A DNA stretch of 43,821 nt. Source: a virus. Both the position numbers and the translations under genes were made by a program. Positions within the stretch are counted from its first letter, which is position 1, and each line of letters starts with the position of its first letter. The DNA lies in the UHGV virus genome UHGV-0374465; one strand, 5' to 3'. The notes below the pieces were generated by a model. That model did not search any database, had not been told where the DNA came from, and worked only from the letters and a program-made list of their open reading frames with translations. Positions 23,062 through 41,127 of the stretch are shown in pieces.

Positions 23062-23090
23062 TTGACTTATTGTTGAGGGTATTGTATTAT
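23062..23090 (+). promoter_or_regulatory. Early promoter E8 (TTGACT-17-TATTAT)
   Basis: Canonical spacing upstream of 23117. Confidence 0.5.
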
Positions 23091-23116
23091 ATAAATATAG
23101 AGAGGGAGGAATTGAA

Positions 23117-23400: not shown

Positions 23401-23401
23401 G

Positions 23402-24356: not shown

Positions 24357-24744
24357 TTAAAAACTATTTAATTACGTATGAAAAGAAGACATATGATGGA
24401 CGGTATCTTGAGACAACTACTCACCAAATACGAATCCCAGCACTAACACTTTTTGACGCTGTAGACTACGCACACAATACGCTAGAACTAGAAGGAATCA
24501 AGGAGGTGCGGTTAGTATGAGTTGGATCATGAAAGCTAAAATATTAAATATACAACAGGCGTCAGTATACGCAGCAAATGAAGAGTATATGAAGTTAGTA
24601 AATATATGTTATAAATGGGAGGTGATTAAATATGATTAAGCTATTCTACTACTATATAAGGTTGAAAATGAAATACCATTATAATATTACGCAAAATATG
24701 GAGATGTGGGATAAATTATTTGAGTTGAAAAAGGAGTTAGCTAA

Positions 24745-26028: not shown

Positions 26029-26048
26029 AAATAAATGTGCCAAACTAG

Positions 26049-26077
26049 TTGACACCCCTTAAATGGGGTGTTATACT
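26049..26077 (+). promoter_or_regulatory. Early promoter E4 (TTGACA-17-TATACT) with a 7 bp hairpin ACACCCC-ttaaat-GGGGTGT in the spacer
   Basis: Canonical hexamers. The hairpin sits 20 nt after the helicase stop, so it may double as a terminator. Confidence 0.6.
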
Positions 26078-26105
26078 TAGTACATAGATAAAAGGAGGAA
26101 GTAAG

Positions 26106-26849: not shown

Positions 26850-27589
26850 TGTATAAATTATATAATGGTGAAGCACTAGAAATTATGGATAAATTAATTA
26901 GTGAAGGTGTTAAAGTTGACTGTATTATCACAGACCCACCTTATGGTAGTTTAAATAAGAAAATTTTCAAATGGGATAACATTATTCCTTTTGATGAAAT
27001 GTGGGATAGAATTGATAAGTTAAAAAGAAACGACAGCACACCAGTATTATTGTTTGGCAAGCAACCTTTTTCTAGCTTTTTAAACATGAGCAATATTAAC
27101 GAATTTAGATTTGAGATTATTTGGGAAAAACAACAAGGTATAGATTTTATGAGCGCAAAAAGAAAGCCTCTTACAAACCATGAAAATATATCTGTGTTTT
27201 ATAAAAAACAAACCAATTATAACCCAATTATGGATAAAGGGACACCGTATGTTAGAAAAGGAGAATACTCATCAAGTGATATTAGTGGGGCAGGAAACTT
27301 AAAGGGTACTGCGCGTGATACCAATAATGAGGGATTTCGTTATCCAAAAACCGTACGTCTATATAGTTCGCCTAGTGGAAAACAAAGAGTACATCCTACT
27401 CAGAAGCCAATTGAGTTACTAGAATGGCTAGTGAAAAGTTATAGCAATGAAGGTGATACAATACTTGACTTCACAATGGGTAGTGGTTCAACAGGGGTTG
27501 CATGTAAAAACACAAATAGAAATTTCATTGGTATTGAATTAGATGAAACCTACTATAATATTGCTAAAGAAAGAATGGAGGACAAATAA
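26849..27589 (+). CDS. DNA methyltransferase (beta-class N6A/N4C; DPPY before FxGxG)
   Basis: IITDPPYGS ... ILDFTMGSGSTGVAC. No adjacent restriction endonuclease. Confidence 0.8.
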   Translation: MYKLYNGEALEIMDKLISEGVKVDCIITDPPYGSLNKKIFKWDNIIPFDEMWDRIDKLKRNDSTPVLLFGKQPFSSFLNMSNINEFRFEIIWEKQQGIDFMSAKRKPLTNHENISVFYKKQTNYNPIMDKGTPYVRKGEYSSSDISGAGNLKGTARDTNNEGFRYPKTVRLYSSPSGKQRVHPTQKPIELLEWLVKSYSNEGDTILDFTMGSGSTGVACKNTNRNFIGIELDETYYNIAKERMEDK

Positions 27590-27799
27590 ATGAATTATGA
27601 TGAATTAATCACTAAACTAGATCAACTGCTACCACCAAAGAATCAGAAGCTTAAGGTGTCTGACAAATATTTCTACTATTGTTATGGTTATTTAACCTCG
27701 TTGGATAGTTTTAATATTATTTCAAAAGAGGATTACGTAAACGCCCACAGGTACGTAACTATGAGTATGAATGATAATAAATATAAGGAGGAAGAATAA
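27590..27799 (+). CDS. Hypothetical protein
   Basis: 69 aa, coupled to the MTase stop. Confidence 0.45.
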   Translation: MNYDELITKLDQLLPPKNQKLKVSDKYFYYCYGYLTSLDSFNIISKEDYVNAHRYVTMSMNDNKYKEEE

Positions 27800-27999
27800 T
27801 GGATAAGCGATTATTTAACACAGAGTTTAAAAATGGATATTGTGTGACAGTATTCAGTCAATCAAGATTTGAGTTACAATACTATGTAGAAGTTTTCCAT
27901 GTTAATGAGCCGCAAGATAATCATAGAGTTGAGTTTCATACCGCGCGCGAGGTTTTTGGATATTTATCAGATATTCAAAATTATAAACAAAAAGACTAG
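27799..27999 (+). CDS. Hypothetical protein
   Basis: 66 aa, GGAGG RBS. Confidence 0.45.
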   Translation: MDKRLFNTEFKNGYCVTVFSQSRFELQYYVEVFHVNEPQDNHRVEFHTAREVFGYLSDIQNYKQKD

Positions 28000-28020
28000 T
28001 CAATTGACTAGTCTTAACGA
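27997..28020. repeat. Perfect 24 bp palindrome AAGACTAGTCAATTGACTAGTCTT
   Basis: Exact symmetry, overlaps a stop codon. The ACTAGT hexamer is also the core of the terS-terL hairpins. Confidence 0.6.
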
Positions 28021-28065
28021 GAGGAGGGAGGAGGAATCCCTATAATTAATTATAGCATAAAATAA

Positions 28066-28094
28066 AAGTTTTGTGTTGACATTGAAACAATATT
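28066..28094 (+). promoter_or_regulatory. Early promoter E9 (TTGACA-17-TAAGAT)
   Basis: Canonical spacing upstream of 28137. Confidence 0.5.
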
Positions 28095-28136
28095 ATGTTA
28101 AGATTGAGATAGTTAAACGAGAAAGGATTTGATAAA

Positions 28137-28448
28137 ATGTTTAATGAATCTGAAGAACTACAGAATACACTTGATAAAATAATACAGGGTTCACGTATTA
28201 CAGGCAGTGTATTTGAACCTGAAGAATTAAAAAATACAAAACGCTACAAAACCAGCTCAGGTAAACAACTCTTTGACGTGCTAGAAGATGATTTACTAAC
28301 TTATGAAGAATTACGTGGTTTCTACAAAGCGAACATTTACAAATATACACACAGATATAAACAAAAAAACGGCATTGAAGATTTGAAAAAAGTAAAGGTC
28401 TATGTAGATCAACTAATAAAACTGGAGGAAAAACAAGATGAGATTTGA
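28137..28448 (+). CDS. DUF3310-like phage protein
   Basis: YKANIYKYTHRYKQKNGIEDLKKVKVYVDQLI resembles the DUF3310 signature GNiiKY..R..KkG..DLeKa..Yl..Li. Confidence 0.5.
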   Translation: MFNESEELQNTLDKIIQGSRITGSVFEPEELKNTKRYKTSSGKQLFDVLEDDLLTYEELRGFYKANIYKYTHRYKQKNGIEDLKKVKVYVDQLIKLEEKQDEI

Positions 28449-28908
28449 ACCATTAAACGAGCCGTATGATATGTACGCCATAACAGATGAGGGTCATGTG
28501 TTTCATTTAGATAAAGAACGATATGAACGTGAATTAATGGATCCAAAAAATGGAAAGATGTATGTAGTACTGGAAGGCTCACATAAGAAGTCACGTAAGT
28601 TCTACGTCTCTCAATTAGTAGCAGACATGTTTGTTAGAAATGAGCATAATTTAGGTTATTTATATTTTAAAGATGGTAACGTACAAAATAGTCACTATAC
28701 AAATATTGGTTACGCCATTAATCCAAAAGAAGGGGTACAACGTGTGGCACGTCCTTTCAGAAAGAAAGTAGAGGCAAAACGACATGCCTTGATTGTTGCA
28801 ATAGGTCAAGCATGTGATTACAAAGATTTTAAAGAAGCCAATAGATTAGGTAGAGAATTGTGGGAGTTGGAGGGCGCGTCATATGATAACAGAAACCATG
28901 AGTTTTGA
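28438..28908 (+). CDS. HNH_3/NUMOD-like homing-endonuclease-related protein, probably catalytically degenerate
   Basis: YAITDEGHVFHL ... KFYVSQLVADMFVRNEHNLGYLYFKDGNVQNSHYTN parallels YeVS.G.V.S ... vHRLVA.aF ... HkDGNk.NN but has F in place of the catalytic H. Confidence 0.45.
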   Translation: MRFEPLNEPYDMYAITDEGHVFHLDKERYERELMDPKNGKMYVVLEGSHKKSRKFYVSQLVADMFVRNEHNLGYLYFKDGNVQNSHYTNIGYAINPKEGVQRVARPFRKKVEAKRHALIVAIGQACDYKDFKEANRLGRELWELEGASYDNRNHEF

Positions 28909-29644
28909 TATTCACTATACAGGAAGTAAAGGAAACTGTGCTTCTATCTATTATGATAACTTAGGATTCTTAATTGATATAGGGAAGCCATATAAATACA
29001 TTGAACCTTATTTATTTAACAAGCAATTCATTATAATCACACATAAGCACCAAGATCACCTTGTATATACAACATATAAAAAGATTAGAGAAAATTTTCC
29101 ACATATTCAAATATTGGGTAATCAGGAAGTACAAGATAACTTAAAGAAACGTAACTTACCACTGTTAGACCTTATATTCAAAGATGACTTCCAATTCCAA
29201 ATTGGTGAAGTTAAGTTCACCACAATTCAGAATTATCATGGAGCTGGAGAAGAGTATACAGAAACACATGGTTTCATTATGGAGACACATAACCAAAATA
29301 CTTTGTTTGCCACTGATTTAAGTACAATGACAGACTATGAAAAGTATCTTTTGGAAAACGACTTAACGATTGATAACCTATTACTTGAAGCTAACTATGA
29401 CCCTAAAGTTATTGAATTTTACGAATCTACAAAACAGCACACTGGGTATGATGTGTTTAGTAATGGTAGTTACCGTCACTTAAGTACAACAGAACGAGAG
29501 TTATTTGTTGACAAATTTGGTAAAGATGATATGATTAATGTAGAACTACACCAGTCAGAAACATATCGTACTTTTGATGGGTTAATTAGACGATCAAAAG
29601 GAAAAATTACAAAAAAAGATGTTGACAACTGGCTGGTAAGATGA
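28883..29644 (+). CDS. Metallo-beta-lactamase-fold hydrolase
   Basis: IITHKHQDHL (HxHxDH motif). Confidence 0.65.
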   Translation: MITETMSFDIHYTGSKGNCASIYYDNLGFLIDIGKPYKYIEPYLFNKQFIIITHKHQDHLVYTTYKKIRENFPHIQILGNQEVQDNLKKRNLPLLDLIFKDDFQFQIGEVKFTTIQNYHGAGEEYTETHGFIMETHNQNTLFATDLSTMTDYEKYLLENDLTIDNLLLEANYDPKVIEFYESTKQHTGYDVFSNGSYRHLSTTERELFVDKFGKDDMINVELHQSETYRTFDGLIRRSKGKITKKDVDNWLVR

Positions 29645-29679
29645 TAAGATTAAAACATAAAGACAGAGGAGGAAGCAAA

Positions 29680-29853
29680 ATGAAATTAGAGATAACATGG
29701 AGAGAATCACAGGAAGTATTATCAGCAATAAATGCCTGGGTATCAAAATATGGGTCTGACAATATGTCAGAGGAAATGAAAGAACTTACAGAAAAATGTC
29801 TTGCATTTGACAAGCAAATCTTAGATAACTTTGGAGTGGAGGAAGAAAAATGA
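29680..29853 (+). CDS. Hypothetical protein (57 aa)
   Basis: GAGGAGG RBS + ATG at 29680. Confidence 0.4.
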   Translation: MKLEITWRESQEVLSAINAWVSKYGSDNMSEEMKELTEKCLAFDKQILDNFGVEEEK

Positions 29854-30077
29854 CTTATCAATATGGAGATCTAGTAAAATTTACAAACAACTATGGAATG
29901 CACGCAGCACAAGGCGACGAAGGAACTGTACAACACGTAGACAAGTTTGGAAACATTCTTGTCTTAGTTGAAACAGGAGACTTCGCAGCACGCTTTGAGG
30001 AAGTACGTGACGAAGATATTGAACTGATTGATCGCTTGAGTGATGAAGATTTGGATTTGTTGAAGGAGGAACTGTGA
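29850..30077 (+). CDS. Hypothetical acidic protein
   Basis: 75 aa, ATGA coupling. Confidence 0.45.
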   Translation: MTYQYGDLVKFTNNYGMHAAQGDEGTVQHVDKFGNILVLVETGDFAARFEEVRDEDIELIDRLSDEDLDLLKEEL

Positions 30078-30079
30078 GA

Positions 30080-30247
30080 ATGAACTATAAAACACTTTTG
30101 AAATTAGATTACTCATATACTGAAAACCAGTTGTTTGATTTAATTGAGAAGTATAAGTGGTTATTAAAAATAAATTATACGATTGATGAAATTTTTGCAG
30201 TAGAGTATAAACGCCTTCAAATGGAGGATGAAAAACATGGCCTTTGA
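30080..30247 (+). CDS. Hypothetical protein (55 aa)
   Basis: GGAGG RBS. Overlaps the next gene. Confidence 0.3.
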   Translation: MNYKTLLKLDYSYTENQLFDLIEKYKWLLKINYTIDEIFAVEYKRLQMEDEKHGL

Positions 30248-31043
30248 GTTATCAATTCAATCTACAGGTAAACATGAAATACAATTCATTGGCTACGAAA
30301 AAACACTTGATGATGTTAGGAGATTAGCTGAACGTATGAAAGAGCAAGAAGTGAACGAGGAAAACATTATTGAAAACAAAAAACTTCTTGCTGAAATTCG
30401 TAAGGAAATTAAAAAATTAGACTCAGAACGTCTAGCTGTTAAGCGTGAAATTATGACACCCTATGACGAACTCAATGAGAAAATAAAAGTATTGAAAGAA
30501 GTACTGGGTGAAGGTGAGGGTCATATAAATGCTCAAATTAAAGAGATTACCGCTCGTGAGCAGGAACAACGTAAGTTACAAATCAAGGACTTATTTAAGA
30601 AGTATCAAAAGTCATATAACGCTCCACAATGGCTTACTTTTGATAAGTTCATTGCCAAAAACCCAACACTAATTACTAATAAGTCAACTAGTGCTAAGAA
30701 GATACGTGAAGCGGTGGTTTCTTATTTTGAAGCATTTAAACAAGACTATTCTAAGTTAAAAGAGACTTATCCTGACAAAGATGATCGTTCTGCCATTCTG
30801 ATTGCCTACTCTAAAAACGGTCATAATATGCAAGAAGCTATCATTGACTATGCTAATATGATTGCTGAGAAAGAACGTCTTGAAAAAGAACAGGCTAGAG
30901 TGAAAGAAACCAGAGTGCCTGACATTGTCATACTCACTGGAAACGAGCAAAAACAGGAGGCTCCTAAACCAGTTGAATATGTAACAATTAAAGTTAAGAA
31001 AGAAGATTTGAGGAAACTTAAAATTGAGTATGAGGTACTATAA
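30237..31043 (+). CDS. Coiled-coil protein, possibly DUF1351-type
   Basis: 268 aa, Lys/Glu-rich heptad regions. RBS-supported ATG at 30237. Confidence 0.5.
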   Translation: MAFELSIQSTGKHEIQFIGYEKTLDDVRRLAERMKEQEVNEENIIENKKLLAEIRKEIKKLDSERLAVKREIMTPYDELNEKIKVLKEVLGEGEGHINAQIKEITAREQEQRKLQIKDLFKKYQKSYNAPQWLTFDKFIAKNPTLITNKSTSAKKIREAVVSYFEAFKQDYSKLKETYPDKDDRSAILIAYSKNGHNMQEAIIDYANMIAEKERLEKEQARVKETRVPDIVILTGNEQKQEAPKPVEYVTIKVKKEDLRKLKIEYEVL

Positions 31044-31124
31044 TAAGCTACACAAGTAAGGGAATATGTGCTATAATAGATTTTGTAAGAGAGAAAATAA
31101 AACAAATTAATTGGAGGAATTAAG

Positions 31125-31817
31125 ATGTCAGAATTGAAAAAAGTAATTATCGTTAGCGCAGAGGAAGATGATATTAGCGTGAAATTACAGGTAGCCAGTG
31201 AAGATTATAGCGCTATCTATGAAGCTGCAGTATTTAAACAAACATATGATAAAGACTCTAAAACATGGAACGACTTCACAGATGAAGATACAAAAGGCAA
31301 AGAACGACTTGAAAAAGCATTAGAACTTTTAGGTGGCTCTTTTTACAACTTGGAAGATAAAGAGTTAGAAATGTATGTAGACGAAGAAACAGGCAAAGCA
31401 TATTTTGAAGAAGGAACATCATTCAAAAAGATTGAGAAACCACTGGTTTCACTAAAACGGTTGAAGCAAGTTCCCATTGTAGAAATCAAAGATAGTGCTA
31501 AAGGGCGTGCGGTAGTTGTAGAGCATGATGGTAAATACTACTCATTTAATTTCAATTCAGGAGTATATATCGATAAATTGAACAAATTTATTCCTAATCA
31601 AGCGAAACTTGCCAAAGCCAAAGCACGCTTCAATGAGTTGTTTGAAGATGTAAATGTAACATGGGATACTGCAGAAATGGCGATTGGAATGGTTGTGGAT
31701 TGCACTGTTAATAAAAATATGCTGGATCCAAAATCCCCATATGGATGGTTGGAGGCACAACCACTTGATCCTGATGACCAGAAAGAGGTTGTAACAGAAG
31801 AGGAGTTACCATTCTAA
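31125..31817 (+). CDS. Hypothetical acidic protein (possible recombination/SSAP-associated; unassigned)
   Basis: 230 aa. Position next to the DUF1351-like gene in the replication/recombination block. Confidence 0.5.
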   Translation: MSELKKVIIVSAEEDDISVKLQVASEDYSAIYEAAVFKQTYDKDSKTWNDFTDEDTKGKERLEKALELLGGSFYNLEDKELEMYVDEETGKAYFEEGTSFKKIEKPLVSLKRLKQVPIVEIKDSAKGRAVVVEHDGKYYSFNFNSGVYIDKLNKFIPNQAKLAKAKARFNELFEDVNVTWDTAEMAIGMVVDCTVNKNMLDPKSPYGWLEAQPLDPDDQKEVVTEEELPF

Positions 31818-31847
31818 AATAAATGTAAAAGAGGTTAGCCAAAACGG

Positions 31848-31876
31848 TTGACTTCTTTTTTTATCCATGCTATACT
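31848..31876 (+). promoter_or_regulatory. Early promoter E5 (TTGACT-17-TATACT) with conserved leader. A T-run-containing imperfect hairpin lies upstream.
   Basis: gaggttagccaaaacggttgacttcttttttt, then ccatgcTATACTtaattcataa. Confidence 0.55.
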
Positions 31877-31906
31877 TAATTCATAATTTAATAGGAGGTA
31901 ATTAAA

Positions 31907-32236
31907 ATGAATAACAATACAATTATCATTCACGTACCATCAGAAGATTTAAAGGAGGGTAATCTTTGGGATAAAATTTACGACATGTTTGCACAAGAAT
32001 TAATAAGATTAAATATGGAACATGCAGCAGAGTTTAATGCAAGAGTAGGTTTTACAAACGATCCAATCCGCAAAGCAACTAACCGTATGATGATAACTAG
32101 ACTAGTTAAGTCTATGAGTGGTTATAAGGTTGAGATAAAGCATGAAGACGTTGAAACGGGTATAACTACTCTTGCTGTATCAATCCATACAACGACTGAT
32201 CCTTTAACACACTACCAATGGGGTGATGGAGAATGA
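31907..32236 (+). CDS. Hypothetical protein
   Basis: 109 aa, TAGGAGG RBS. Confidence 0.45.
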   Translation: MNNNTIIIHVPSEDLKEGNLWDKIYDMFAQELIRLNMEHAAEFNARVGFTNDPIRKATNRMMITRLVKSMSGYKVEIKHEDVETGITTLAVSIHTTTDPLTHYQWGDGE

Positions 32237-32442
32237 AGATTGGAAACGTGGTTGAATTAAAAAGAGATAATCTAAACGGAATTGGCATTAAAGGTGAGAA
32301 AGGTGTGGTACTGTACAAGCTTTACGAACCAGTTGACGGATGTGAACTAATGGTTAAGTTATACAGTGGTTCAACAGAAGCCTTCATAGAACAAGATTTA
32401 AAATTATCAGTTAAAAACATTGACAAAGTTAACTTCACATAG
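32233..32442 (+). CDS. Hypothetical protein
   Basis: 69 aa, ATGA coupling. Confidence 0.45.
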   Translation: MKIGNVVELKRDNLNGIGIKGEKGVVLYKLYEPVDGCELMVKLYSGSTEAFIEQDLKLSVKNIDKVNFT

Positions 32443-32448
32443 TAAACT
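32420..32448 (+). promoter_or_regulatory. Early promoter E6 (TTGACA-17-TAAACT) embedded in the 3' end of the preceding gene
   Basis: Canonical spacing. Followed by the leader cttaattcataagataaagagagg. Confidence 0.5.
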
Positions 32449-32479
32449 TAATTCATAAGATAAAGAGAGGAAGATTAAA

Positions 32480-32812
32480 ATGACTAAACAAAATCCAGTA
32501 TTAGAAACATTGAAGAAAATGAACACACCACAACAGGAGGAAAAAGAAATGACTAACGAAGAATTACAACATGAAATATATAAAGAACAGTTACGCCAAT
32601 TAAAAGAATTGAAGGAAGATAGTAAAAAACCAAGTTTGACTGTTTATTTATTGCTAGCACTCTTCTTAGGAGGAATTGGTGCCCATGATTTCTATGTTGG
32701 AAAACCAGTGCAAGGACTCATTAAACTAGCATTCTGTTGGACAGGTATTCCTACAATTGTTTCACTATTCAATATTATTGGTGCGTTGATGAACAAACAA
32801 AACTTTAAATAA
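32480..32812 (+). CDS. TM2 domain-containing membrane protein
   Basis: LFLGGIGAHDFYVGKPVQGLIKL matches the TM2 signature G..G.H.FY.G....G..kL. Confidence 0.6.
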   Translation: MTKQNPVLETLKKMNTPQQEEKEMTNEELQHEIYKEQLRQLKELKEDSKKPSLTVYLLLALFLGGIGAHDFYVGKPVQGLIKLAFCWTGIPTIVSLFNIIGALMNKQNFK

Positions 32813-32828
32813 TAGGAGGAAGATTAAA

Positions 32829-33035
32829 ATGATGTTAGTAGACAACTTAATTTTAACAGTGAAAGATGAAGATGGTGTAATTATCAACAGACATTTTAAT
32901 GAGGTGTATATAAAGATTGATCCAACTCAAATGATGATTGCAAACAAGAAGAAAACGATTGCCGTTTATAAGTTAGATGATATCTTGTATATGCAAACAC
33001 AAGGACATCCACGTCATTTCAAATGTTTCAGATGA
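32829..33035 (+). CDS. Hypothetical protein
   Basis: 68 aa, TAGGAGG RBS. Confidence 0.4.
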   Translation: MMLVDNLILTVKDEDGVIINRHFNEVYIKIDPTQMMIANKKKTIAVYKLDDILYMQTQGHPRHFKCFR

Positions 33036-33075
33036 GACACACAATAGAAAGCTTCATAGAATTTCTACTTTGTAC

Positions 33076-33104
33076 TTGTGTATTAGCAATTGACGTGATA
33101 TACT
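33076..33104 (+). promoter_or_regulatory. Early promoter E10 (TTGTGT-17-TGaTATACT, extended -10)
   Basis: Upstream of the polymerase gene. Confidence 0.4.
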
Positions 33105-33137
33105 ATATTATATTCAAACGAGAGAGGAAGTAACTAG

Positions 33138-35417
33138 ATGAAAAACATTGCAGAATTTAAAGGTGCTGAAAAACTGGCATCTAAACTGTTAGAAATATTC
33201 GCAGCACTTGCTGGAAATGGGAAAAGTTTTGATCCAATAGTAGAAGGAGTTCACCAAGTTGTAGTGATTAAAGCAGAGGAACGTTTATCTGCTAAAGGTA
33301 AAGAAATGAAAGAAATTAAAGTACGCAGCACAAATGATGGACGTGACGCTACTTTTTATATTATGAAGTTTCGTAAAAAAGACTGGAAAACTTGGGAAAA
33401 TATTGAAGTAGGTCAACAACTGATGATTACTCTGAAATACAATAATGGTTTTCCAAATGTAGCCATTAATCAAAAAGGAGCAGTTATTGATAATTTACCT
33501 GAGAAACCACACGGGGCACTAACACATCAAACAATCTATATTTATGATATTGAAGTATTTAAAAAAGATAATTTATTTGTTTTCAGAGATTACTTCACTA
33601 AAGAATGGACAGTTATTCATAATGATTTAGACGCGTTACGTAAGTTCTATCTTGCGAATAGAGATTCATTGTTTGTTGGTTATAATTCACACTCATATGA
33701 TTCCAATGTCATGCGTGCCTATTTACAAGGTAAAAACCCATTTCATGTGTCAAAAGCGATCATTGAAAGTGATGACAGAGCGTTAGCATATAAAATGTTT
33801 GATACTAAGAAAACACCACTGTTTGGAATGGATTTATATCAAGACAATAGAGGTTTTAGTTTGAAAGAACATAGCGCTTTCATGGGTATTAATATTAAAG
33901 AAACTGAGGTAGACTTTGATTTAGATAGAGAACTAACAGAAGAAGAACAAGTCTTGAATGAGTTGTACTGTAAAAATGATGTGTTAGCTACGGAAAAACG
34001 TTTTGAACAAAATATAGGCATGTTAGTAGCTAAGGCTGCAATTGCACTATATTTTGATTTAGATAAAATGGCACTGTCAATGACTAACGCAAATTTAACA
34101 GCTGAACTATTGGGGGCTGAAAAGACACCTGATAGAGGTGATGAGTTAGATAAGTATGAACTACCAGAAGGATTTAAAATTGAATCAGAGACCATCCGTC
34201 AGGCGTTTATGACAGATGAATTTGAAGCTAATGATAAAGGACATGCTAGTATTTCATTAGATGTACCACGTAGAGACGTAACAGAGGTTTTAGGGGTAGG
34301 TGGGATACACGGTGCTAAGGAGTCATTTATTCATGTAGGTAACTTCCATGCACGTGACGTAGGTTCTCTATATCCAAACACAATGGTATTGTTTGACTAC
34401 TTATCAAGAAACATTCCAGAAGATAAACGGCATATCTATCAAATGTTATTAGATGAACGCATGGAAGCCAAGTATTCTAATAAAGAATTTACTGAAATTA
34501 AAGGCGTTCAAATTCCAACAAAGTTGCTAATTAATGGTTATAAACTACCTTTAAACACGAAATATGGTGCAATGGGAGCTGAGTTTAATAAACTATATGA
34601 TCCACGCATGAGATTATTAGTGTGTATCACTGGACAGATGGCAATGTGGGACTTACTAGAAAAGATTGAAGACCATGCTACTATTATTCAATCAAACACA
34701 GACGCACACTACTATATTCCATTCAGTGAAGAAGATGAAAAAGCTATTGATGAGATTGCAAATGATTGGATGAAACGAACAGGATACACCTTAGATGATG
34801 ATCCATTTAAAGCTATTTTCCAGAAGGACGTTAATAATTATTTAGCTGTTACATCAGACGGTAAAGTGAAGTTTAAGGGTGCCATAGGACTAACTAATGG
34901 TTTGAAAGTATCTAAAGCAATTGTGTCAAATGCTTTTATTAACTACGTGGTTGCTGGTAAAGATTATAAAGATTTTATCAATGAATGTGACGAACTACGT
35001 CAATTCCAAATGATTACTAAAACTGGCTGGACATTTGATGATACTATTGTACGTGATAGTGAAGGTAATGAAATGAAAGCACAAAAAGTAAACCGCACAT
35101 TTGCAATAAAAGACCCTAATAAAGCTGTTGAAATATTCAAGGTGAAACGTGGAGCTGTAATTGAAGAGGAAGGCACAACTATTGTTGGTGATGATTCTTA
35201 TACTAAAGGTTTACCTAATGCACCTGAGTATTATGCCATTGACAATGACGCAATTGGTGAAGGATGGATAACTATTGATGATATTGATAAAGAATACTAT
35301 ATAAACCAGGTGGAAGATTTACTTGTAATGTGGTTTGGTACAAATTGGAAAGAGCGTATTGAGCAGGCGCATAGCCAGATAGATGAATTTCCAGAAGTTA
35401 AAAATTATATTGACTAA
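33138..35417 (+). CDS. Family B DNA polymerase with a 3'-5' exonuclease domain
   Basis: Exo I YDIEV, Exo II YNSHSYDSNVM, Exo III YCKNDV. Pol motif A DVGSLYPNTM, motif B KLPLNTKYG, and a QSNTDAHY motif-C-like segment. Confidence 0.8.
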   Translation: MKNIAEFKGAEKLASKLLEIFAALAGNGKSFDPIVEGVHQVVVIKAEERLSAKGKEMKEIKVRSTNDGRDATFYIMKFRKKDWKTWENIEVGQQLMITLKYNNGFPNVAINQKGAVIDNLPEKPHGALTHQTIYIYDIEVFKKDNLFVFRDYFTKEWTVIHNDLDALRKFYLANRDSLFVGYNSHSYDSNVMRAYLQGKNPFHVSKAIIESDDRALAYKMFDTKKTPLFGMDLYQDNRGFSLKEHSAFMGINIKETEVDFDLDRELTEEEQVLNELYCKNDVLATEKRFEQNIGMLVAKAAIALYFDLDKMALSMTNANLTAELLGAEKTPDRGDELDKYELPEGFKIESETIRQAFMTDEFEANDKGHASISLDVPRRDVTEVLGVGGIHGAKESFIHVGNFHARDVGSLYPNTMVLFDYLSRNIPEDKRHIYQMLLDERMEAKYSNKEFTEIKGVQIPTKLLINGYKLPLNTKYGAMGAEFNKLYDPRMRLLVCITGQMAMWDLLEKIEDHATIIQSNTDAHYYIPFSEEDEKAIDEIANDWMKRTGYTLDDDPFKAIFQKDVNNYLAVTSDGKVKFKGAIGLTNGLKVSKAIVSNAFINYVVAGKDYKDFINECDELRQFQMITKTGWTFDDTIVRDSEGNEMKAQKVNRTFAIKDPNKAVEIFKVKRGAVIEEEGTTIVGDDSYTKGLPNAPEYYAIDNDAIGEGWITIDDIDKEYYINQVEDLLVMWFGTNWKERIEQAHSQIDEFPEVKNYID

Positions 35418-35421
35418 ACAC

Positions 35422-35450
35422 TTGACACCTCTTAACTGAGGTGTTATACT
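35422..35450 (+). promoter_or_regulatory. Early promoter E7 (TTGACA-17-TATACT) with a 7 bp hairpin ACACCTC-ttaact-GAGGTGT in the spacer
   Basis: Same architecture as E4. 5 nt after the polymerase stop. Confidence 0.6.
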
Positions 35451-35485
35451 TAATTCATAAAGTAATAGGAGGAAAATAAAATAAT

Positions 35486-36208
35486 ATGAGATACGTAGGA
35501 AGTAAAAACAGATTAAGCAAAGAGTTAGCGCCAATCATTCAAAGTTACATTACAGATGATACAAACGCATATATTGAACCATTTGTAGGAGGTGCTAACA
35601 TGATTGACAAAATAAAACATCATACTAAAATAGGTAGTGATTTACACAAGGAGTTAATTGCATTACTAAATAAAGCAAAATATGATGTAAACAGTATACC
35701 TGATATAATAAGCCTAGAATATCATAACGCAGTTAAAAATAATAGGGCTAGCTACCCTGATTGGGAGGTAGGATTGATAGGTTTCTGTAGCTGTTTTGGA
35801 GCAGACTTCATGAAAGGTTATGCTAGAAATAAAAAAGGTGATAATAGCGGAGAGTGGTCAGCTGGGGCTATTAAAAATTTAAAAAAACAATCTGCACTCT
35901 TTAAAGACATTACCTTTGAATGTAAGTCATTTACTGATTATGACTCTAATGGTTATGAAAATTGTGTATTTTATTTAGATCCACCGTATAGAGAGGTACA
36001 TGGGTATTCAACTGGTAAATTTTCATATGAAGAATTTGATAAGTGGGCTATTGAACTAGCTAAAAACAACACAGTACTAATTAGCGAATATGAAATGCCA
36101 GAAGAATATTTTGAATGTATCTGGAGTAAAGAGGTTAAAGTAGGTATTAGTAGACAGGGAGATATAAAAAATAATAAACGAGTTGAAAAATTATTCAAAG
36201 TACGTTAA
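35486..36208 (+). CDS. Dam-like N6-adenine DNA methyltransferase (D12 class)
   Basis: MRYVGSKNRL..., motif I EPFVGGANM, motif IV LDPPY. Confidence 0.75.
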   Translation: MRYVGSKNRLSKELAPIIQSYITDDTNAYIEPFVGGANMIDKIKHHTKIGSDLHKELIALLNKAKYDVNSIPDIISLEYHNAVKNNRASYPDWEVGLIGFCSCFGADFMKGYARNKKGDNSGEWSAGAIKNLKKQSALFKDITFECKSFTDYDSNGYENCVFYLDPPYREVHGYSTGKFSYEEFDKWAIELAKNNTVLISEYEMPEEYFECIWSKEVKVGISRQGDIKNNKRVEKLFKVR

Positions 36209-36456: not shown

Positions 36457-37152
36457 GTGTTGATTACATTAGCTGGAGTAATTGGGGTAGGTAAGTCCTC
36501 AATGACACAATTATTAAGTGAGTTACTGGAGACTAAAGCAGTATATGAACCAGTTGAGGACAATCCTCTACTGGAAAAGTTCTACGCAGACAAGAAAAAG
36601 TATGGTTTTCTATTTCAAATTGACATGTTATCCAAGCGTTTTGAACTTATTCAGGAAGCTATGAGTGTTAAAAATGGAATTCTTGATCGTTCAATTTATG
36701 AGGATTCTATCTTTTTAAAGCAGTTATATGATGAAGGTGCTGTGAACAAGCTAGAGTTAGATGTTTATACGAAACTGTTAAATCGTATGTTAAAAGAACT
36801 AGAACCATTACCTAAGAAATCGCCTGATTTGATGATTGTTTTAAATTGTAGTTTTGATGAAGAGATTAAACGCATTAATAAACGAGCAAGAGATTTTGAA
36901 AAGGTTGAAGAAGGTACTGAACTATATGAATACTTCAGAGACCATCACGCTAATTATCAAGAGTGGATGAATAAAGATTTAGGCTTCCCTAAATTAATTA
37001 TAGATGTAACATCTCTTGACTATGTTAATAATCAAGAACATCGTATGAAAGTATTAATGATGATTCTAGATAAATTATTCCATGTAGGAGCAATTAGTGG
37101 TGATGAACACACCTATTTCTCTCAAAAACTGTGTCTCTCACGAGCATTCTAA
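36457..37152 (+). CDS. Deoxynucleoside kinase
   Basis: P-loop GVIGVGKSS and a DRSIYEDS (ERS-like) motif. GTG start. Confidence 0.75.
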   Translation: MLITLAGVIGVGKSSMTQLLSELLETKAVYEPVEDNPLLEKFYADKKKYGFLFQIDMLSKRFELIQEAMSVKNGILDRSIYEDSIFLKQLYDEGAVNKLELDVYTKLLNRMLKELEPLPKKSPDLMIVLNCSFDEEIKRINKRARDFEKVEEGTELYEYFRDHHANYQEWMNKDLGFPKLIIDVTSLDYVNNQEHRMKVLMMILDKLFHVGAISGDEHTYFSQKLCLSRAF

Positions 37153-37164
37153 GCACTTTAAATT
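37128..37164 (+). repeat. Direct repeat copy 1 flanking the lysis cassette (24 bp perfect core TGTGTCTCTCACGAGCATTCTAAG + TTTAAATT)
   Basis: Lies in the last codons of the kinase gene. Copy 2 is at 38919..38955. Confidence 0.7.
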
Positions 37165-37200
37165 AATCAAACAATGTAATTACCCAATTAAATACAAAAG

Positions 37201-37228
37201 AAAACCACTGGATTAACCAGTGGTTTTT
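37201..37228. terminator. Bidirectional rho-independent terminator between the convergent early and late units
   Basis: AAAACCACTGG-atta-ACCAGTGGTTTTT, with an A-tract and a T-tract on either side. Confidence 0.7.
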
Positions 37229-37229
37229 A

Positions 37230-38255
37230 TTATAAACTCAAATAGATTGAGTCAATTCGTACATCGTTTACTGCGCCTTCACCATTAGATTTATTAGCTC
37301 TACGTAAAATCACATCTACTTTTTTACCTTTGAACTGATTCTTATTGACTGTTACATCAAAACCAAGTTCTTGCCCACCTTGATAGCCATATGCTTTCTT
37401 CACATCTGGGCGTTTAATGCCTCGAGATTGTACACGTGTCAATTCTTTATTTGTTCCATGTTGCATGAAGATGACATAAGCATATGTTCCAATTGGGCCT
37501 TGTGGTTTATCAGGAACCAACCAGCCAGCCACACGAATTTGGTCTTTACCATGACCATTAAAGTAGTCTAGTTTACCCCAGGCATTACCTTGATGTTTTG
37601 CTGGGCTTGCAGATACTGCCTTATCATGTTGGCTAGGTGTTGAAGGTGTTACGTTTGCTCCACTTGGAGGTGTTTGTCCACTTGTAGATGGCGCTTTGCC
37701 GTCTGGTTTCAAACTAGGGTTATTATAATACTTAAGAACGTTTTTAATCACATAGTCCTTCATTGCATTAGTTACATTAGCTGGCTGAGCTTGTGTTGAG
37801 TTGAAACCAGTGTGAATAATCAATGAACGTTTAGGACATTGTGTGGCTGAAAACTCATGATGTAAACGTACAGTGTTGCGGTTAACAGGTAATCCATAAT
37901 ATTTCAAATCTTGAGCAATCTGCCAGAATGTGTTTTCTTCTGCTTGCAAGAAGTCTTTTAACGGTGTTTGATCGTTACCACACACTTCGTAACCAATATA
38001 GTTTGTATTACCATCGCTGTTTGCCGTATGCCAAGCAGCATTATAGGTATCTTCAGTACGCCAAATTGTATTCTTATCAATGTAGTAATGAGCAAATCCA
38101 GCAGCTAACTGATTATTGTTCATTGCGGCTAAACGATTAGCTTCTTGTTTAGCTGTTGAGTTACCCCATGTATTATGAAATACTACACCTTTCACTGCGC
38201 CTGGTCTACGTCCAGCCACACCACGTGTAACTGTTTTGTTGATGATTTCCACCAT
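37230..38255 (-). CDS. Endolysin: N-acetylmuramoyl-L-alanine amidase (Amidase_2/PGRP) with a C-terminal cell-wall-binding domain
   Basis: GVVFHNTWGNSTAKQEANRLAAM...CPKRS amidase_2 core. Pro/Ser/Thr linker, then a C-terminal domain. Confidence 0.85.
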   Translation of the reverse strand: MVEIINKTVTRGVAGRRPGAVKGVVFHNTWGNSTAKQEANRLAAMNNNQLAAGFAHYYIDKNTIWRTEDTYNAAWHTANSDGNTNYIGYEVCGNDQTPLKDFLQAEENTFWQIAQDLKYYGLPVNRNTVRLHHEFSATQCPKRSLIIHTGFNSTQAQPANVTNAMKDYVIKNVLKYYNNPSLKPDGKAPSTSGQTPPSGANVTPSTPSQHDKAVSASPAKHQGNAWGKLDYFNGHGKDQIRVAGWLVPDKPQGPIGTYAYVIFMQHGTNKELTRVQSRGIKRPDVKKAYGYQGGQELGFDVTVNKNQFKGKKVDVILRRANKSNGEGAVNDVRIDSIYLSL

Positions 38256-38271
38256 GTTATCACTCTCTTTC

Positions 38272-38553
38272 TTATTTCTTTGGTTCTGTATAGTTTAATG
38301 CTTTTTCACTATCTGTAATACCTTTAGTTGTTGGGTCTGGAATCATGTTTAATGCATTAATTACCGTTAATCCTAAAACATAAGGATTGCTTACCGCTCT
38401 GACTAATACATCCAATAATGTATCAAAGGATGTAATATCCTCAAACTTCAAACCAAAGTAAGCTAGGATAGGTACTGCTAATGCGCCAATAAAACGCAAG
38501 ATAAATGTTAGGTTGTCTTTGCTAAAACGAACTTTCCAGTTGATTTTTTTCAT
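38272..38553 (-). CDS. Holin (phiLC3/Phage_holin_1 family)
   Basis: MKKINWKVRFSKDNLTFILRFIGALAVPILAYFGL... Adjacent to the endolysin. Confidence 0.8.
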   Translation of the reverse strand: MKKINWKVRFSKDNLTFILRFIGALAVPILAYFGLKFEDITSFDTLLDVLVRAVSNPYVLGLTVINALNMIPDPTTKGITDSEKALNYTEPKK

Positions 38554-38565
38554 TCTACATCACTC

Positions 38566-38844
38566 CTATTTCATAAATAAGGATAAACCAATACTAACTA
38601 GTGCTCCAATAACTGCGCCAACAGTTGTACGTGTTAACCATGTATAGCTGTTTTTGAGGTCAGCTAATGCCTCTCTATTCTGCATGGACATGCTGTAAGC
38701 CTTATCTGCTTTCTCAGATTGGCGTTCTAAGCGGCTTCCATACTCTTTTAAGTCAGCTTTAATCTCAGGTATATCATCAAGTTTAACCTCAATTCTTGCT
38801 AACTGTTCCTTTAATGACACAAACTCCTTATCGTTTAAGTTCAT
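38566..38844 (-). CDS. XhlA-like protein (coiled-coil N-terminus, C-terminal TM)
   Basis: 92 aa, upstream of the holin. Confidence 0.6.
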   Translation of the reverse strand: MNLNDKEFVSLKEQLARIEVKLDDIPEIKADLKEYGSRLERQSEKADKAYSMSMQNREALADLKNSYTWLTRTTVGAVIGALVSIGLSLFMK

Positions 38845-38918
38845 AGCAAAACACTCCTATTCATTTATCACCTCGTTTCCTAGGTCTGTAATCATTATAA
38901 CATCTATATAAGCGAAAT

Positions 38919-38955
38919 AGTGTGTCTCTCACGAGCATTCTAAGGCGTTTAAATT
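38919..38955 (+). repeat. Direct repeat copy 2 flanking the lysis cassette
   Basis: agTGTGTCTCTCACGAGCATTCTAAGgcgTTTAAATT. Perfect 24 bp core match to 37130-37153. Confidence 0.7.
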
Positions 38956-38994
38956 TTATTAGGTGGGTTATTATGCGTTTAAGAGCAAATAAAT

Positions 38995-39020
38995 AGCCCT
39001 CAAAAAGAGGGTTATTTTTG
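38995..39020. terminator. Hairpin AGCCCTC-aaaaa-GAGGGTT followed by ATTTTTG. A possible terminator overlapping the stop of the 89 aa gene.
   Basis: 7 bp stem (one G-U wobble), T-run on the plus strand, T-rich on the minus strand. Confidence 0.4.
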
Positions 39021-39281
39021 ATTTATAATATTAGTAAGCTCCTCAACACGTTTAGTTAAATCTTCTACTTGTTGTTTCAGGTCATCCTCGTTAGTTGTAT
39101 CCTTAACTTCCTGCCATTCACTCACGATAGATTGTAAAAATTGATCCATTTCAGGTGGTGAGTTATGATACACTTCTGTAAGACACTGGTTGAATAATTC
39201 TTTAATATATCCAGTAAGTGGTTCATCATTTTCTAGACATCTATTAATATACTCCTGTTTAAATACTTCTCTAATATCCAT
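39012..39281 (-). CDS. Hypothetical acidic coiled-coil protein (89 aa)
   Basis: AGGAGG RBS + ATG at 39281 (MDIREVFKQEY). Preferred over the track's start at 39326. Confidence 0.45.
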   Translation of the reverse strand: MDIREVFKQEYINRCLENDEPLTGYIKELFNQCLTEVYHNSPPEMDQFLQSIVSEWQEVKDTTNEDDLKQQVEDLTKRVEELTNIINQK

Positions 39282-39291
39282 TTTAAACCTC

Positions 39292-41127
39292 CTAAATATT
39301 TCCAGCAATAAAATTACATTGCACATTTAACCACGAACCAGGGTTAACATCAACTATGGTATATGAAGAACCGTTCCAACCACCCATGTTATACATATAC
39401 ATTCTACCATTATTATTTATTTGTAATACATATCTAGTGACCCCACTCCCAGGTACTACAAAACGTACTGTACCAGAAGGTCTATATCCAACAGGTAGTG
39501 TTCCCATATATAGTGGTTCGTGACCAACATTGGCTGGTACTTTATTCTTGTTTTTAAAAGCACCATACAATTGTACTGTTCTCATATATCGTTCCGCTGA
39601 CGGTTCTTGACCTACTGAATATGGTTCAAAGTCTGGTCCATATTCAGTAATCTCTTTTTTTGGTAAGGTCATCAAATCTTGATATCCTAGATGAACCATT
39701 CCAAATTGACTATGGTGTTCTTTATTATATATATCTATTCCTGTAGCTCCAAATGTGGAACTTGCAGCTACTAAACCATCTGCGCCATTTTGTACTGATT
39801 CAATATTTACACCGTTCCATGTTTGACGACCGCTAGCTAAGAATGCCCCTGTTTCAGTATCATTGATATTGTACTGTGTTTCCACGATTCCACGTTGAAT
39901 GGTGGTATTACCTGTCAAAGTGGCGTCTGTGCCAACTGGTTCTGTAAAGGTGTTATTGAACTCACCACCATTTATAATACTACCATTGATCTCAGCACCA
40001 CTAATTTCACCACCCTCAATTACACTACCTGTAAGGTGTGAACCTTGAATCGTTTTACCAATGATCGTTTCAGCAATTACAGAACTTTCAAATGGTATTT
40101 CAACCCACGTACCACCTTTAGCTTCATACACACCAGTTACTTTGCCAGAAACCACTTTATACCAGATGTCACCTTCATTGAAGTCTGTTGGCTCTGTTTC
40201 ACCAGTGAACAGTTGTCCATCTGCCCCATCTTCACCTTGTCTAGCTACTGTGTAGGACTCAGCTTTTGTACCATTAGTGTAATTCAATGTGACACGTGTC
40301 CATAGGTATTGACCTCCGCTTATAGAAGGGATAGTGCTAGTCCATCCAGTAGACGGAGGTGTTGTTGAGTTAGTTGACTTATTATACTCAATGAGTGTAG
40401 TAGAAATTCCTACACCGTTAGTACCATTAGAGCCGTTTGCTCCTTGTCTAGCTACTGTATAGCCTTGTTCAGTAGTGTTATCAGTGTATGTCCATGTGGT
40501 GCGTGTCCATAGGTACTGACCTGGTGGAACAGTAGGTACTGTTGTAGCCCATCCACTGGTAGGTCTAATTGTACCACTCGTATTAACAGCATATTCAATT
40601 ACAGTGGTTTTAATACCTACCCCATCTTTACCAGCTATACCATCATTACCTTTAACACCATCTTGTCCCATTCTAGCTACTGAGTAACCTGTTTCAGAAC
40701 TTGAATCAGTGTACGTCCACACCGTTTTAGTCCATAGATACTGACCTGCTGGAACAGTTGGTACTTGAGATTGCCACCCTGTAGCTGGAGGTATACTTGC
40801 ATTAGTATGACCAGCGTATGTGATACTGGTTGATTGTAGACCCACCCCATCTTTACCAGCTATTCCATCCTTACCAGAGTCGCCTTTTGTACGTTGCCAT
40901 TCATATTTACTAGGGTCTGTTGAATCTATCATTTCAAAATCTGTATAGTAACCAGTATAGGCCCTGTTCGTTGCGTCTGTCGTACTAAAATCTACTCCAC
41001 CATCTGCACTATTAGAATAGGCAATGTGTACATAACTGGTTTTACCGTCATCACCCTTTTCACCCTTCATACCAACCTCTTCTGGGTCATAGTTTGGTAA
41101 TATATAATCTGATTTGATTGTTGCCAT
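39292..41127 (-). CDS. Receptor-binding protein / tail fibre with collagen-like G-X-Y stretches and three tandem ~75 aa repeats
   Basis: GDSGKDGIAGKDGVGL, GNDGIAGKDGVGI, GANGSNGTNGVGI. Repeat units contain TGWxSxVPTVPxGQYLWTxTxWTYTD. Confidence 0.7.
   Translation of the reverse strand: MATIKSDYILPNYDPEEVGMKGEKGDDGKTSYVHIAYSNSADGGVDFSTTDATNRAYTGYYTDFEMIDSTDPSKYEWQRTKGDSGKDGIAGKDGVGLQSTSITYAGHTNASIPPATGWQSQVPTVPAGQYLWTKTVWTYTDSSSETGYSVARMGQDGVKGNDGIAGKDGVGIKTTVIEYAVNTSGTIRPTSGWATTVPTVPPGQYLWTRTTWTYTDNTTEQGYTVARQGANGSNGTNGVGISTTLIEYNKSTNSTTPPSTGWTSTIPSISGGQYLWTRVTLNYTNGTKAESYTVARQGEDGADGQLFTGETEPTDFNEGDIWYKVVSGKVTGVYEAKGGTWVEIPFESSVIAETIIGKTIQGSHLTGSVIEGGEISGAEINGSIINGGEFNNTFTEPVGTDATLTGNTTIQRGIVETQYNINDTETGAFLASGRQTWNGVNIESVQNGADGLVAASSTFGATGIDIYNKEHHSQFGMVHLGYQDLMTLPKKEITEYGPDFEPYSVGQEPSAERYMRTVQLYGAFKNKNKVPANVGHEPLYMGTLPVGYRPSGTVRFVVPGSGVTRYVLQINNNGRMYMYNMGGWNGSSYTIVDVNPGSWLNVQCNFIAGNI
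40270..40930 (-). repeat. Intragenic tandem DNA repeats (3 x ~225 bp) within the RBP gene
   Basis: Recurring gtgcgtgtccataggtaYtgacct... blocks on the plus strand. They encode the three protein repeats. Confidence 0.6.

Follow-up and report, generated by a model that had tools for sequence, protein, structure and literature searches.

The lysis genes of the virus genome UHGV-0374465, analysed here as a single stretch of 43,821 nt (the window), are enclosed by a non-coding element of approximately 95 nt that begins on the left with a repeated 24-mer; its two copies are paralogous, have the same orientation and border the lysis cassette on either side. By its sequence, the window represents a lytic siphovirus of Enterococcus faecium, complete or nearly so, of the IME-EFm1 / IME-EFm5 / KEN21 / Aramis kind, with KEN21 (98%) as its best match. 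We give about even weight to the view that the element is a duplicated terminator-associated regulatory cassette, the conserved sequence of which also anchors homologous recombination. Within the 24-mer, a 17-nt core is under very strong purifying selection at the copy that adjoins the lysis promoter, and the best-supported reading of the sequence comparisons is that this core is conserved primarily for a cis-regulatory reason. Early genes occupy the + strand from ~17.7 to 37.2 kb and late genes the − strand, with the lysis cassette last, such that copy 1 of the element (c1) is positioned where both units converge. The extremes of the GC skew coincide only with the places where transcription units diverge or converge.

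Anatomy of the element

The 24-mer TGTGTCTCTCACGAGCATTCTAAG occurs exactly twice in the window, at 37130–37153 and 38921–38944, both on the + strand, and is in each case followed directly by nnnTTTAAATT, as had been noticed in an original prediction made from the sequence alone. No third match with three or fewer mismatches was found on either strand of the whole window and a match appeared in none of 100 shuffled sequences; none is thus expected by chance, and the earlier judgement that a chance match is very unlikely can be upheld. The first copy lies at the end of the deoxynucleoside kinase (dNK) gene (36457–37152, + strand; Pfam dNK, E=3.4e-39), which is the last gene of the early unit and has its final seven codons and TAA stop codon within c1. 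The second copy (c2) lies between the start of xhlA at 38844 and a small open reading frame (ORF) on the − strand (39012–39326; 89–104 aa; no Pfam match). To the right of the block, variable genes begin with this ORF, which is present, absent or replaced among relatives. Between the copies are the three lysis genes, all on the − strand, that encode an XhlA-like protein (38566–38844; PF10779, E=9e-14), a holin (38272–38553; Phage_holin_1) and an endolysin with an Amidase_2 domain and a C-terminal binding domain (37230–38255), together with terminator 1 (37201–37227). The last is bidirectional and common to the convergent early and lysis units; it was found by a scan (11-bp stem, five GC pairs) and is also seen in folds. 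All of these placements agree with the original prediction.

The repeat is not, however, a unit of 24 bp. The match is exact over that length, but similarity runs on, both loci being collinear without indels over ~72 nt and then reaching an intrinsic terminator, as was established by comparison with 10 GenBank relatives and 24 IMG/VR loci. The order within the element is the 24-mer, three variable nucleotides, TTTAAAT, ~12 nt, a GGTGATTA-like box, TTTAAA, an A-tract and the hairpin. In c1, the spacer or ‘box’ (37154–37200, + strand) comprises the three variable nucleotides, TTTAAATT, the GTAATTACC box, TTAAAT and the A-tract, and is collinear with that of c2 (38945–38990, + strand) by alignment and by nhmmer. 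Terminator 2 (38991–39017; from the scan and the homology breakpoints) ends the tail operon on the − strand and forms the right-hand mosaic joint. An intrinsic terminator is predicted at the end of each copy, in the window as well as in MSF2, which belongs to the sister clade (Efquatrovirus proper, here the classic Efquatroviruses of E. faecalis: MSF2, IME196, AUEF3, heks, EFap02 and MF-DL). The left boundary of the element is sharp and lies at the 24-mer. An nhmmer profile built from the copies gives exactly two matches per complete genome (37126–37194 and 38916–38986 in the window; the same in Aramis) and a weak third copy in phage 9184; it disclosed no hidden further copies.

Searches for another identity of the element were negative. 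Rfam, at a permissive E-value, returned only sub-threshold noise for the window region and nothing for the non-coding region of the 72-kb phages described below. RNAalifold, applied to both strands of 46 copies and of 15 diverse copies, found no consensus helix outside the terminators; the 15-copy alignment missed the terminators too, as a result of register shifts, and the power of the folding test is limited accordingly. Single-sequence folds likewise contained no conserved helix in the non-terminator part. Small ORFs across the element on either strand were considered and rejected, given the stops, the lack of a ribosome-binding site, a 1-nt indel in locus L015 and an ATG that is not kept in the Efquatroviruses. 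Compared by eye with known motifs, the element is missing invariant positions of sigma-54 promoters (−24/−12), the CcpA cre site, the LexA box, SPO1 late promoters and CRISPR repeats (mimicry). In the literature, no publication was found that describes the element, and only mosaicism and the shuffling of domains in proteins for receptor binding and lysis are noted.

Copy 2 and the predicted lysis promoter

On the − strand, the hexamer TATAAT, preceded by TGn, lies 21 nt past the c2 24-mer in all of the phages except L015 (20 nt), and the same is true of the Efquatroviruses. This extended −10 element of the predicted lysis promoter (TGTTATAAT; 38894–38902) is conserved in all c2 loci of both clades, with TG and the hexamer (TATAAT/TATACT) kept and n being T, G or C. 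The stretch between it and the 24-mer (38903–38920, − strand; approximately −13 to −33) is conserved as well, as is evident from its diversity, given below, and from comparison with MSF2; CACACTATTTC within it is kept even in the Efquatroviruses. If the start is assumed to be ~7 nt after the −10 element, the core would occupy approximately −57 to −41 and the 24-mer −57 to −34. The other late promoters of the window have the form CACA-N14-TGnTATAAT, often right behind a terminator. In the lysis promoter, CACA is 4 nt too far upstream, so that there is no −35 element at a usable distance, and ~90 nt (spacer plus core) are inserted between the terminator and the −10 element.

The mechanism that we favour, of which the promoter role, the binding of a factor and the mode of recombination are inferred while the breakpoints, distribution, anatomy and pattern of selection are shown, would be as follows. 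Terminator 2 would halt the transcripts of the tail operon and, ~90 bp past it, the −35-less extended −10 promoter would restart transcription into xhlA-holin-endolysin; c2 would then be the upstream control region of the lysis promoter, insulating the lysis genes from the tail operon. The core is most likely a recognition site for a sequence-specific factor, be it a phage or a host protein, which would set the timing or level of lysis-gene expression. A fixed distance to the core promoter and selection above that on the surrounding non-coding DNA, both features of promoter-upstream sites, are found at c2; the fixed distance is not found at c1. The latter would be a promoter-less paralogue on the terminator common to the early and lysis units, under weaker constraint and losable. 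At the level of modules, the elements are conserved islands between highly variable modules, and homologous recombination between co-infecting phages would for that reason resolve at their edges, accessory early genes being swapped to the left of c1 and tail-fibre or receptor-binding protein genes to the right of c2, with occasional exchange between the copies themselves.

There are several observations that speak against this proposal. The centre of the core is near −49, which is not a textbook position for an activator. No helix-turn-helix protein, sigma factor or ArpU-type regulator was found by Pfam and PHROGs among 49 small or unassigned ORFs, and the curated annotation of Aramis likewise lists neither a sigma factor nor a helix-turn-helix regulator. 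The promoter model does not explain why a spacer that is otherwise neutral should have a fixed length. The c1 core is ~4-fold below neutral diversity with no conserved −10 element downstream, for which the promoter model alone is insufficient. Finally, the element of the 72-kb phages lies ~40 kb from their own xhlA and lysis genes, with no gene on the relevant strand.

Two related possibilities were discarded. A − strand promoter formed by TAGAAT in the core or CATAAT in the spacer has no consistent −35 element or TG and was not called by the scan. Homology of c1 with the c2 promoter up to the −10 element was considered since the upstream 21 nt are 57% identical, but this is probably coincidence because the stretch encodes the C-terminal segment of dNK, which is weakly similar to longer dNK homologues; no conserved −10 element is found downstream of c1 in any of its four contexts.

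Late promoters were also recorded elsewhere on the − strand, at 17355, 15903, 14868, 14799, 10496, 7787, 7117 and 1918 (also 14315 and 6487), most of them of the CACA-N14-TGnTATAAT form. A terminator hairpin immediately precedes those at 14315, 7117, 6487 and 1918, such that the late region is a chain of terminator-promoter units. Late-type promoter-like sites at 28057 and 20966 (− strand) are antisense inside the early region; one such antisense site is in the gap 27590–28136, 550 nt without a long ORF, which may give rise to an antisense or non-coding transcript.

Selection on the two copies

Nucleotide diversity (π) was computed over 27 distinct c2 loci and 21 distinct c1 loci. The only conserved portion of the 24-mer is the 17-mer CTCACGAGCATTCTAAG (37137–37153 in c1, 38928–38944 in c2). 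At c2, π is 0.009 in this core, 0.063 in the first 7 nt of the 24-mer, 0.074 in the stretch down to the −10 element and 0.086 in TGnTATAAT, and it rises to 0.444 in the 3 nt that follow the core, with 0.215 for the spacer and 0.343 for the terminator. The corresponding values for xhlA and the holin gene are 0.19–0.21 at third codon positions and 0.03 at first and second positions; the c2 core is ~20-fold below the adjacent synonymous sites and also below the first and second codon positions. Constraint is unbroken over 38894–38944, from the −10 element through the core, and then breaks off sharply where the core ends on its 3′ side, beyond which the sequence is neutral. The c2 spacer has nevertheless acquired no indels in 27 phages or across the clades, though it evolves at a roughly neutral rate.

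At c1, π is 0.064 in the core, 0.389 in the first 7 nt, 0.143 in the spacer and 0.159 in the terminator, as against a reference value of 0.274 for third codon positions in the sequence encoding the binding domain of the endolysin. The c1 core is thus 7-fold more relaxed than the c2 core and the first 7 nt of the 24-mer evolve neutrally there. Constraint on the 17-mer that is extreme at c2 and moderate at c1 identifies the 17-mer as the functional unit. The c2 24-mer is carried by only four of the 21 distinct c1 sequences, other phages differing at one to six positions; on this evidence, full 24/24 identity between the copies is a lineage-specific extension. The original prediction had read the repeat as a linker for modular exchange; purifying selection on the 17-mer far exceeds what passive homology would need, and this constraint runs without a break into the lysis promoter. 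Within the region studied, no non-coding sequence is more strongly conserved than this 17-mer, which lies on the lysis promoter and would provide a testable handle on lysis timing in a Gram-positive lytic phage that has no annotated regulator.

In the window, the copies share 24 bp of identity and their spacers are ~57% identical. Across the two clades, the ATTCTAAG part of the core is invariant, with spacers there only ~58% identical. A permutation test asking whether copies from the same genome are more alike was not significant within either clade (p = 0.23, 0.56); ongoing within-genome homogenisation was rejected, and the overall value (p=0.0005) reflects clade structure only. In the Efquatroviruses, the two paralogous spacers are 81% identical to one another, whereas the spacers at the same positions in the E. 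faecium clade match them at only ~60%, a pattern that fits either slow homogenisation or independent duplications.

Distribution among phages

Copy 2 is present in all of the 27 distinct relatives and in all six Efquatroviruses. Copy 1 occurs in most relatives and is lost in three lineages; it is absent from DELF1 and EhiS_268, and in EF36P1-3 a deletion at a GATTAC microhomology has removed the kinase gene and the c1 core, with the distal spacer and the terminator kept. These phages are viable, and the c1 core must therefore be dispensable. That they carry the core once only is also a pattern that the original prediction had itself named as speaking against exchange at the repeats.

The six Efquatroviruses have both copies at the same positions and in the same orientation, which implies that the bracketing architecture is ancestral to the whole group. 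All that they have in common with the window here is ...ATTCTAAG, parts of the spacer and the terminators, and the cassette within is a different one (XhlA 38–39% and holin ~31% identical, with no detectable match for the lysin). Different lysis modules between the same linkers, for which the original prediction had proposed a search, are found in the Efquatroviruses, but not among the close relatives.

The 17-mer core is absent from the genomes of all Enterococcus species, and has seven scattered matches in unrelated phyla; the element is accordingly neither a host repeat nor an att site, and a host or prophage origin was discarded. It does, however, occur in unrelated 72-kb phages, with a perfect 28-nt match in contig L029 and a diverged version in the E. 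hirae relative EH802P2, where it is preceded by an HNH gene and followed by iteron-like repeats, within a long stretch of non-coding DNA. Both the 72-kb phages and Phi_Eg_SY1 have xhlA without the element beside it.

Two further features of these phages may be recorded. In the 72-kb E. hirae-type phages (L029 4362–5240; L035 4270–5400), the ~2-kb non-coding region that holds the element also contains AAAAATGAGAAAATTTTTTC as a direct repeat and an iteron-like repeat, CCCCAGAtTTTT / ACATAAAAC, in four copies, and may be a replication origin. In the E. gallinarum phage Phi_Eg_SY1 (L066 1501–2343), xhlA and the holin gene directly abut a convergent glutaredoxin gene, with no endolysin gene in between and neither terminator nor element upstream of xhlA; the endolysin must therefore be encoded elsewhere.

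Module boundaries and recombination

Homology breakpoints were mapped between the window and 15 relatives. On the left, homology breaks at the edge of c1 (37093–37124; 37179 in EF36P2) and, on the right, at terminator 2 (39001–39017) in 11 of the 15 phages, such that a conserved block of ~1.9 kb has the two elements as its outer ends. Other breaks surround the Dam methylase gene (35485/36205) or lie inside the endolysin gene (37646 and 38252/38267), where the catalytic domain (~37646–38252) has been swapped in LG62, KEN18, Aramis, L020 and L018. No close relative has a replacement of the xhlA-holin block. The proposal of modular exchange at the repeats therefore stands in part: breaks are concentrated along the outer sides of the elements, a different cassette is bracketed in the Efquatroviruses and some copies look chimeric. 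The lysis cassette is not, however, the module that close relatives exchange; they keep xhlA-holin and swap the flanks, and the endolysin swaps fall within the gene, not at the repeats.

At least four unrelated contexts are found upstream of c1, and the interval from the glutaredoxin-like gene to c1 is a hypervariable slot. Next to c1 are found the 231-aa kinase with its stop codon inside the core (window 36457–37152), a 39-aa kinase remnant left by deletion at an ATTAGTGnTGA microhomology (KEN21, KEN18 and IME-EFm1), a gene for an NMN transporter, located after a kinase of greater length (267 aa; L011, L018 and L020) and a gene with an alpha-amylase domain (LG62). The slot is located at ~2058–2177 in L004/L007/L002, 2040–2080 in L008, 2059–3258 in L006 and 471–2015 in L020. 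Within it, the dNK gene has undergone two independent microhomology deletions (ATTAGTGnTGA; GATTAC). The dNK of the window reads 22 nt into the element (...CLSRAF*); its homologues in L020 (267 aa) and L029 (250 aa) are longer and have different C-termini.

On the right, the flanks of L020 and Aramis are unrelated to that of the window, despite cassette identities of 95.9% and 95.4%, whereas L025, at 82%, has the same right flank. Such incongruence between cassette and right flank cannot arise without recombination at terminator 2 or close to it. In a hybrid of Aramis and dArtagnan obtained in the laboratory, an exchanged segment extends from the tail module into the lysis module (PMC11210271). 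Copies at c2 with a c1-type ‘cac’ spacer (L016, L019 and L033) or with a clade-mixed spacer (MF-DL) look chimeric. In phage 9184, a private ‘catccaaa’ motif is common to all three copies, and the third, partial copy forms the 3′ end of an insertion of ~1.3 kb (own promoter, ABC-like ATPase and GNAT) in the DNA polymerase gene.

That gene (L003 233–1526) is interrupted ~80 codons before its end and the C-terminus of the polymerase is fused in frame with the GNAT ORF; the promoter of the inserted cassette is TTGACT-N17-TATAGT. HNH endonuclease genes occupy the same spot of the polymerase gene in SSBHU, EF36P2 and IME196.

Between the clades, XhlA is 39% and the holin 31% identical and the lysin is undetectable, compared with 67% for the DNA polymerase (Pol), 52% for Tal and 46% for the glutaredoxin (Grx); the lower values for the lysis genes are compatible with replacement of the cassette or with fast evolution of small lysis proteins. 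DELF1 has an xhlA that is 91% identical to that of the window and an identical 24-mer, yet its holin and lysin are only 72% identical. Apparent repeat-to-repeat boundaries in megablast alignments of DELF1, Bp29 and EhiS_268 were rejected as an alignment artefact, because the single copy of these phages aligns to both copies in the window.

These borders are of practical interest, given that the IME-EFm1/EFm5, Aramis, KEN and Efquatrovirus siphoviruses are among the main therapy candidates against vancomycin-resistant enterococci and are having their host range extended by recombination (‘training’). Module borders at two conserved elements would offer defined landing sites for engineering and help to predict recombinants within cocktails.

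Alternative explanations

The promoter-early stem-loops (PeSLs) of T4-type phages are composite terminator/promoter cassettes that mediate modular shuffling (PMC2839356, Arbiol et al. 2010; PMC4122927, Comeau et al. 2014), and comparable mobility could have placed the repeats around the lysis genes. Recombination between the direct copies would excise a mini-circle of one element plus the lysis cassette, which would re-integrate at the early/late junction of another phage; a single Campbell-type crossover would regenerate a repeat-flanked cassette, the repeats being both footprint and vehicle of exchange. Mini-circles are documented in T4-type phages (PMC2839356), direct repeats around an insert are the expected product of circle integration, and the chimeric copies, the third partial copy of 9184 at the end of an inserted ATPase-GNAT cassette and the discordance between xhlA plus 24-mer and holin/lysin in DELF1 are all in keeping with such events, as is the different cassette of the Efquatroviruses with lysis genes more diverged than Pol, Tal or Grx. 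We nevertheless consider this explanation unlikely: xhlA-holin has not been replaced in any of 27 close relatives and lysin swaps are intragenic; an ‘empty’ single-element junction with the lysis genes elsewhere is not seen, the unrelated 72-kb phages apart; 24 bp of identity plus a spacer of ~57% identity is a poor substrate for recombination; copies from one genome are no closer than copies from different genomes within a clade; and the mobility model has no need of strong selection on the core. The element could also be a relic, without function, of an old local duplication of a terminator region, the exact 24-mer being owed to chance retention or recent gene conversion; this would account for the dispensable and more variable c1, for the neutral spacer and for the restriction of 24/24 identity to few lineages. 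It would not account for a c2 core that is so much less diverse than the adjacent synonymous sites and even than first and second codon positions, for ATTCTAAG remaining invariant between clades in which the spacers have diverged, or for the retention of the two-copy architecture across the whole group, and we think it improbable.

A similarly low probability is assigned to the idea that the two copies jointly act as a lysis timer, with copy identity then being what selection maintains; this assessment covers both versions, one in which a factor bound to both cores would loop out and silence the 1.8-kb cassette, and one in which c1 RNA at the 3′ ends of early messages would be a trans antisense against late transcripts that enter via c2; the regulatory device would in either case be the direct repeat across oppositely transcribed units. 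A specific form of control at the RNA level is marginally less probable still. Since direct copies in oppositely transcribed units yield complementary transcripts, the 3′ untranslated region of the early mRNA (c1) might pair with late read-through transcripts (c2), with cleavage by RNase III delaying expression of the lysis genes. The geometry fits, c1 being in the early transcripts that run to terminator 1 and c2 between the tail-operon terminator and xhlA; 24 nt of perfect complementarity in the window would be enough, and 9184, heks and MSF2 have motifs common to their own two copies. However, the c2 core is invariant in the phages without c1 (DELF1, EhiS_268 and EF36P), transcripts from the conserved promoter would start downstream of the core and so escape, co-variation of the copies within genomes is not significant, the copies differ at 1–6 of 24 positions in most phages, and there is neither a conserved RNA structure nor an Rfam family. 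The element might lastly be a site of the att, attC or dif-like type at which a dedicated recombinase moves gene cassettes, in line with the suggestion of site-specific recombination in the original prediction. The sharp left homology boundary at the 24-mer, the variety of genes upstream of it and the insertion in 9184 would be expected of such a site, but no integrase, resolvase, recombinase or transposase was found by Pfam and PHROGs among the 49 small or unassigned ORFs or in the curated annotation of Aramis, and no tyrosine or serine recombinase domain in the ORFs scanned; moreover, neither dyad symmetry nor an inverted-repeat core is present in the 24-mer, the absence of the core from Enterococcus genomes leaves no attB or dif counterpart, and the junction at c2 is at the terminator, 55–70 nt from the 24-mer, rather than within the core. 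This suggestion is already close to refuted, and the probability that we attach to it is very small indeed.

Relation to known systems

The element resembles PeSLs in being a short conserved non-coding cassette in direct orientation that combines a stem-loop terminator (predicted here) with promoter sequences; in adjoining variable non-essential genes and coinciding with the junctions of insertion, deletion and replacement (37093–37124 and 39001–39017); and in exchange by homologous recombination that would involve no dedicated recombinase. It differs in that there are two copies per genome (three in 9184) and not dozens, located around an essential lysis cassette and not ORFans; in that only c2 is by a promoter, a late one of the −35-less extended −10 type, whereas PeSL promoters are strong early promoters, a strong sigma-70-type promoter being a feature of every copy; in the additional 17-nt core under very strong selection, not described for PeSLs; and in the type of phage and host, a Gram-positive siphovirus. 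If the proposed role is correct, the idea of regulatory cassettes that double as recombination joints would extend beyond the T4-like myoviruses, with their Gram-negative hosts, to a group of Gram-positive siphoviruses.

Conserved ‘linker’ or boundary sequences between modules are familiar from the lambdoid phages (the modular theory of Susskind and Botstein; HK620/HK97-type comparisons). Like these, the element is a short conserved sequence at module borders where mosaic joints cluster; lambdoid linkers, however, are usually read as chance microhomologies or survivors of selection and are not paralogous copies, sharing a strongly selected core, within a single genome. Late activators of Gram-positive phages, of the RinA, ArpU and LtrC families, have sites upstream of late or lysis promoters. 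The core is similarly placed, just upstream of a −35-less promoter for lysis genes (such promoters serve morphogenesis or lysis genes in those systems), although binding here is putative. By contrast with those systems, no such activator is detectable here, the site is duplicated at a position with no promoter, and the core is on the lysis cassette only and not on the packaging or head operon. The par locus of the Enterococcus faecalis plasmid pAD1 (RNA I / RNA II) has direct repeats, DRa and DRb, for which RNA pairing was shown experimentally. As in par, the direct repeats here are in convergent units with a common bidirectional terminator and the RNAs would be complementary at the repeats; the par repeats are tens of bases apart in one small locus, however, whereas those of the window are separated by 1.8 kb and the evidence is against obligatory pairing.

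Other repeats in the window

A second family of repeated regulatory sequences was noted in the early region, where promoter, leader and ribosome-binding site form cassettes of 40–70 nt (TTGACA-N17-TGyTATACTTAnTTCATAA...AGGAGG), repeated seven to eight times (window 17740–35482; copies at 17740, 18093, 18442, 20982, 26026, 31846, 32418 and 35399). One of them precedes the Dam methylase gene (35486–36208), which is itself a presence/absence module (breaks at 35485 and 36205). These early cassettes fit the PeSL idea, including its feature of many dispersed copies beside non-essential genes, better than does the element that flanks the lysis genes.

The small and large terminase genes are separated by an unusually long intergenic region, which contains two exact copies of a 23-nt palindromic hairpin, CCACTAGTTAGCTAGACTAGTGG (14327–14349 and 14510–14532, 183 nt apart); this hairpin may be related to terminators or to cos. 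A recombinant patch is located in the terminase intergenic region of K38.2, a hybrid of Aramis and dArtagnan (PMC11210271). To the right of the lysis block, the gene for a 611-aa tail fibre (39292–41127) contains internal direct repeats of ~207–225 nt (40217–40875), which correspond to repeated protein segments, and relatives are homologous to it in parts only.

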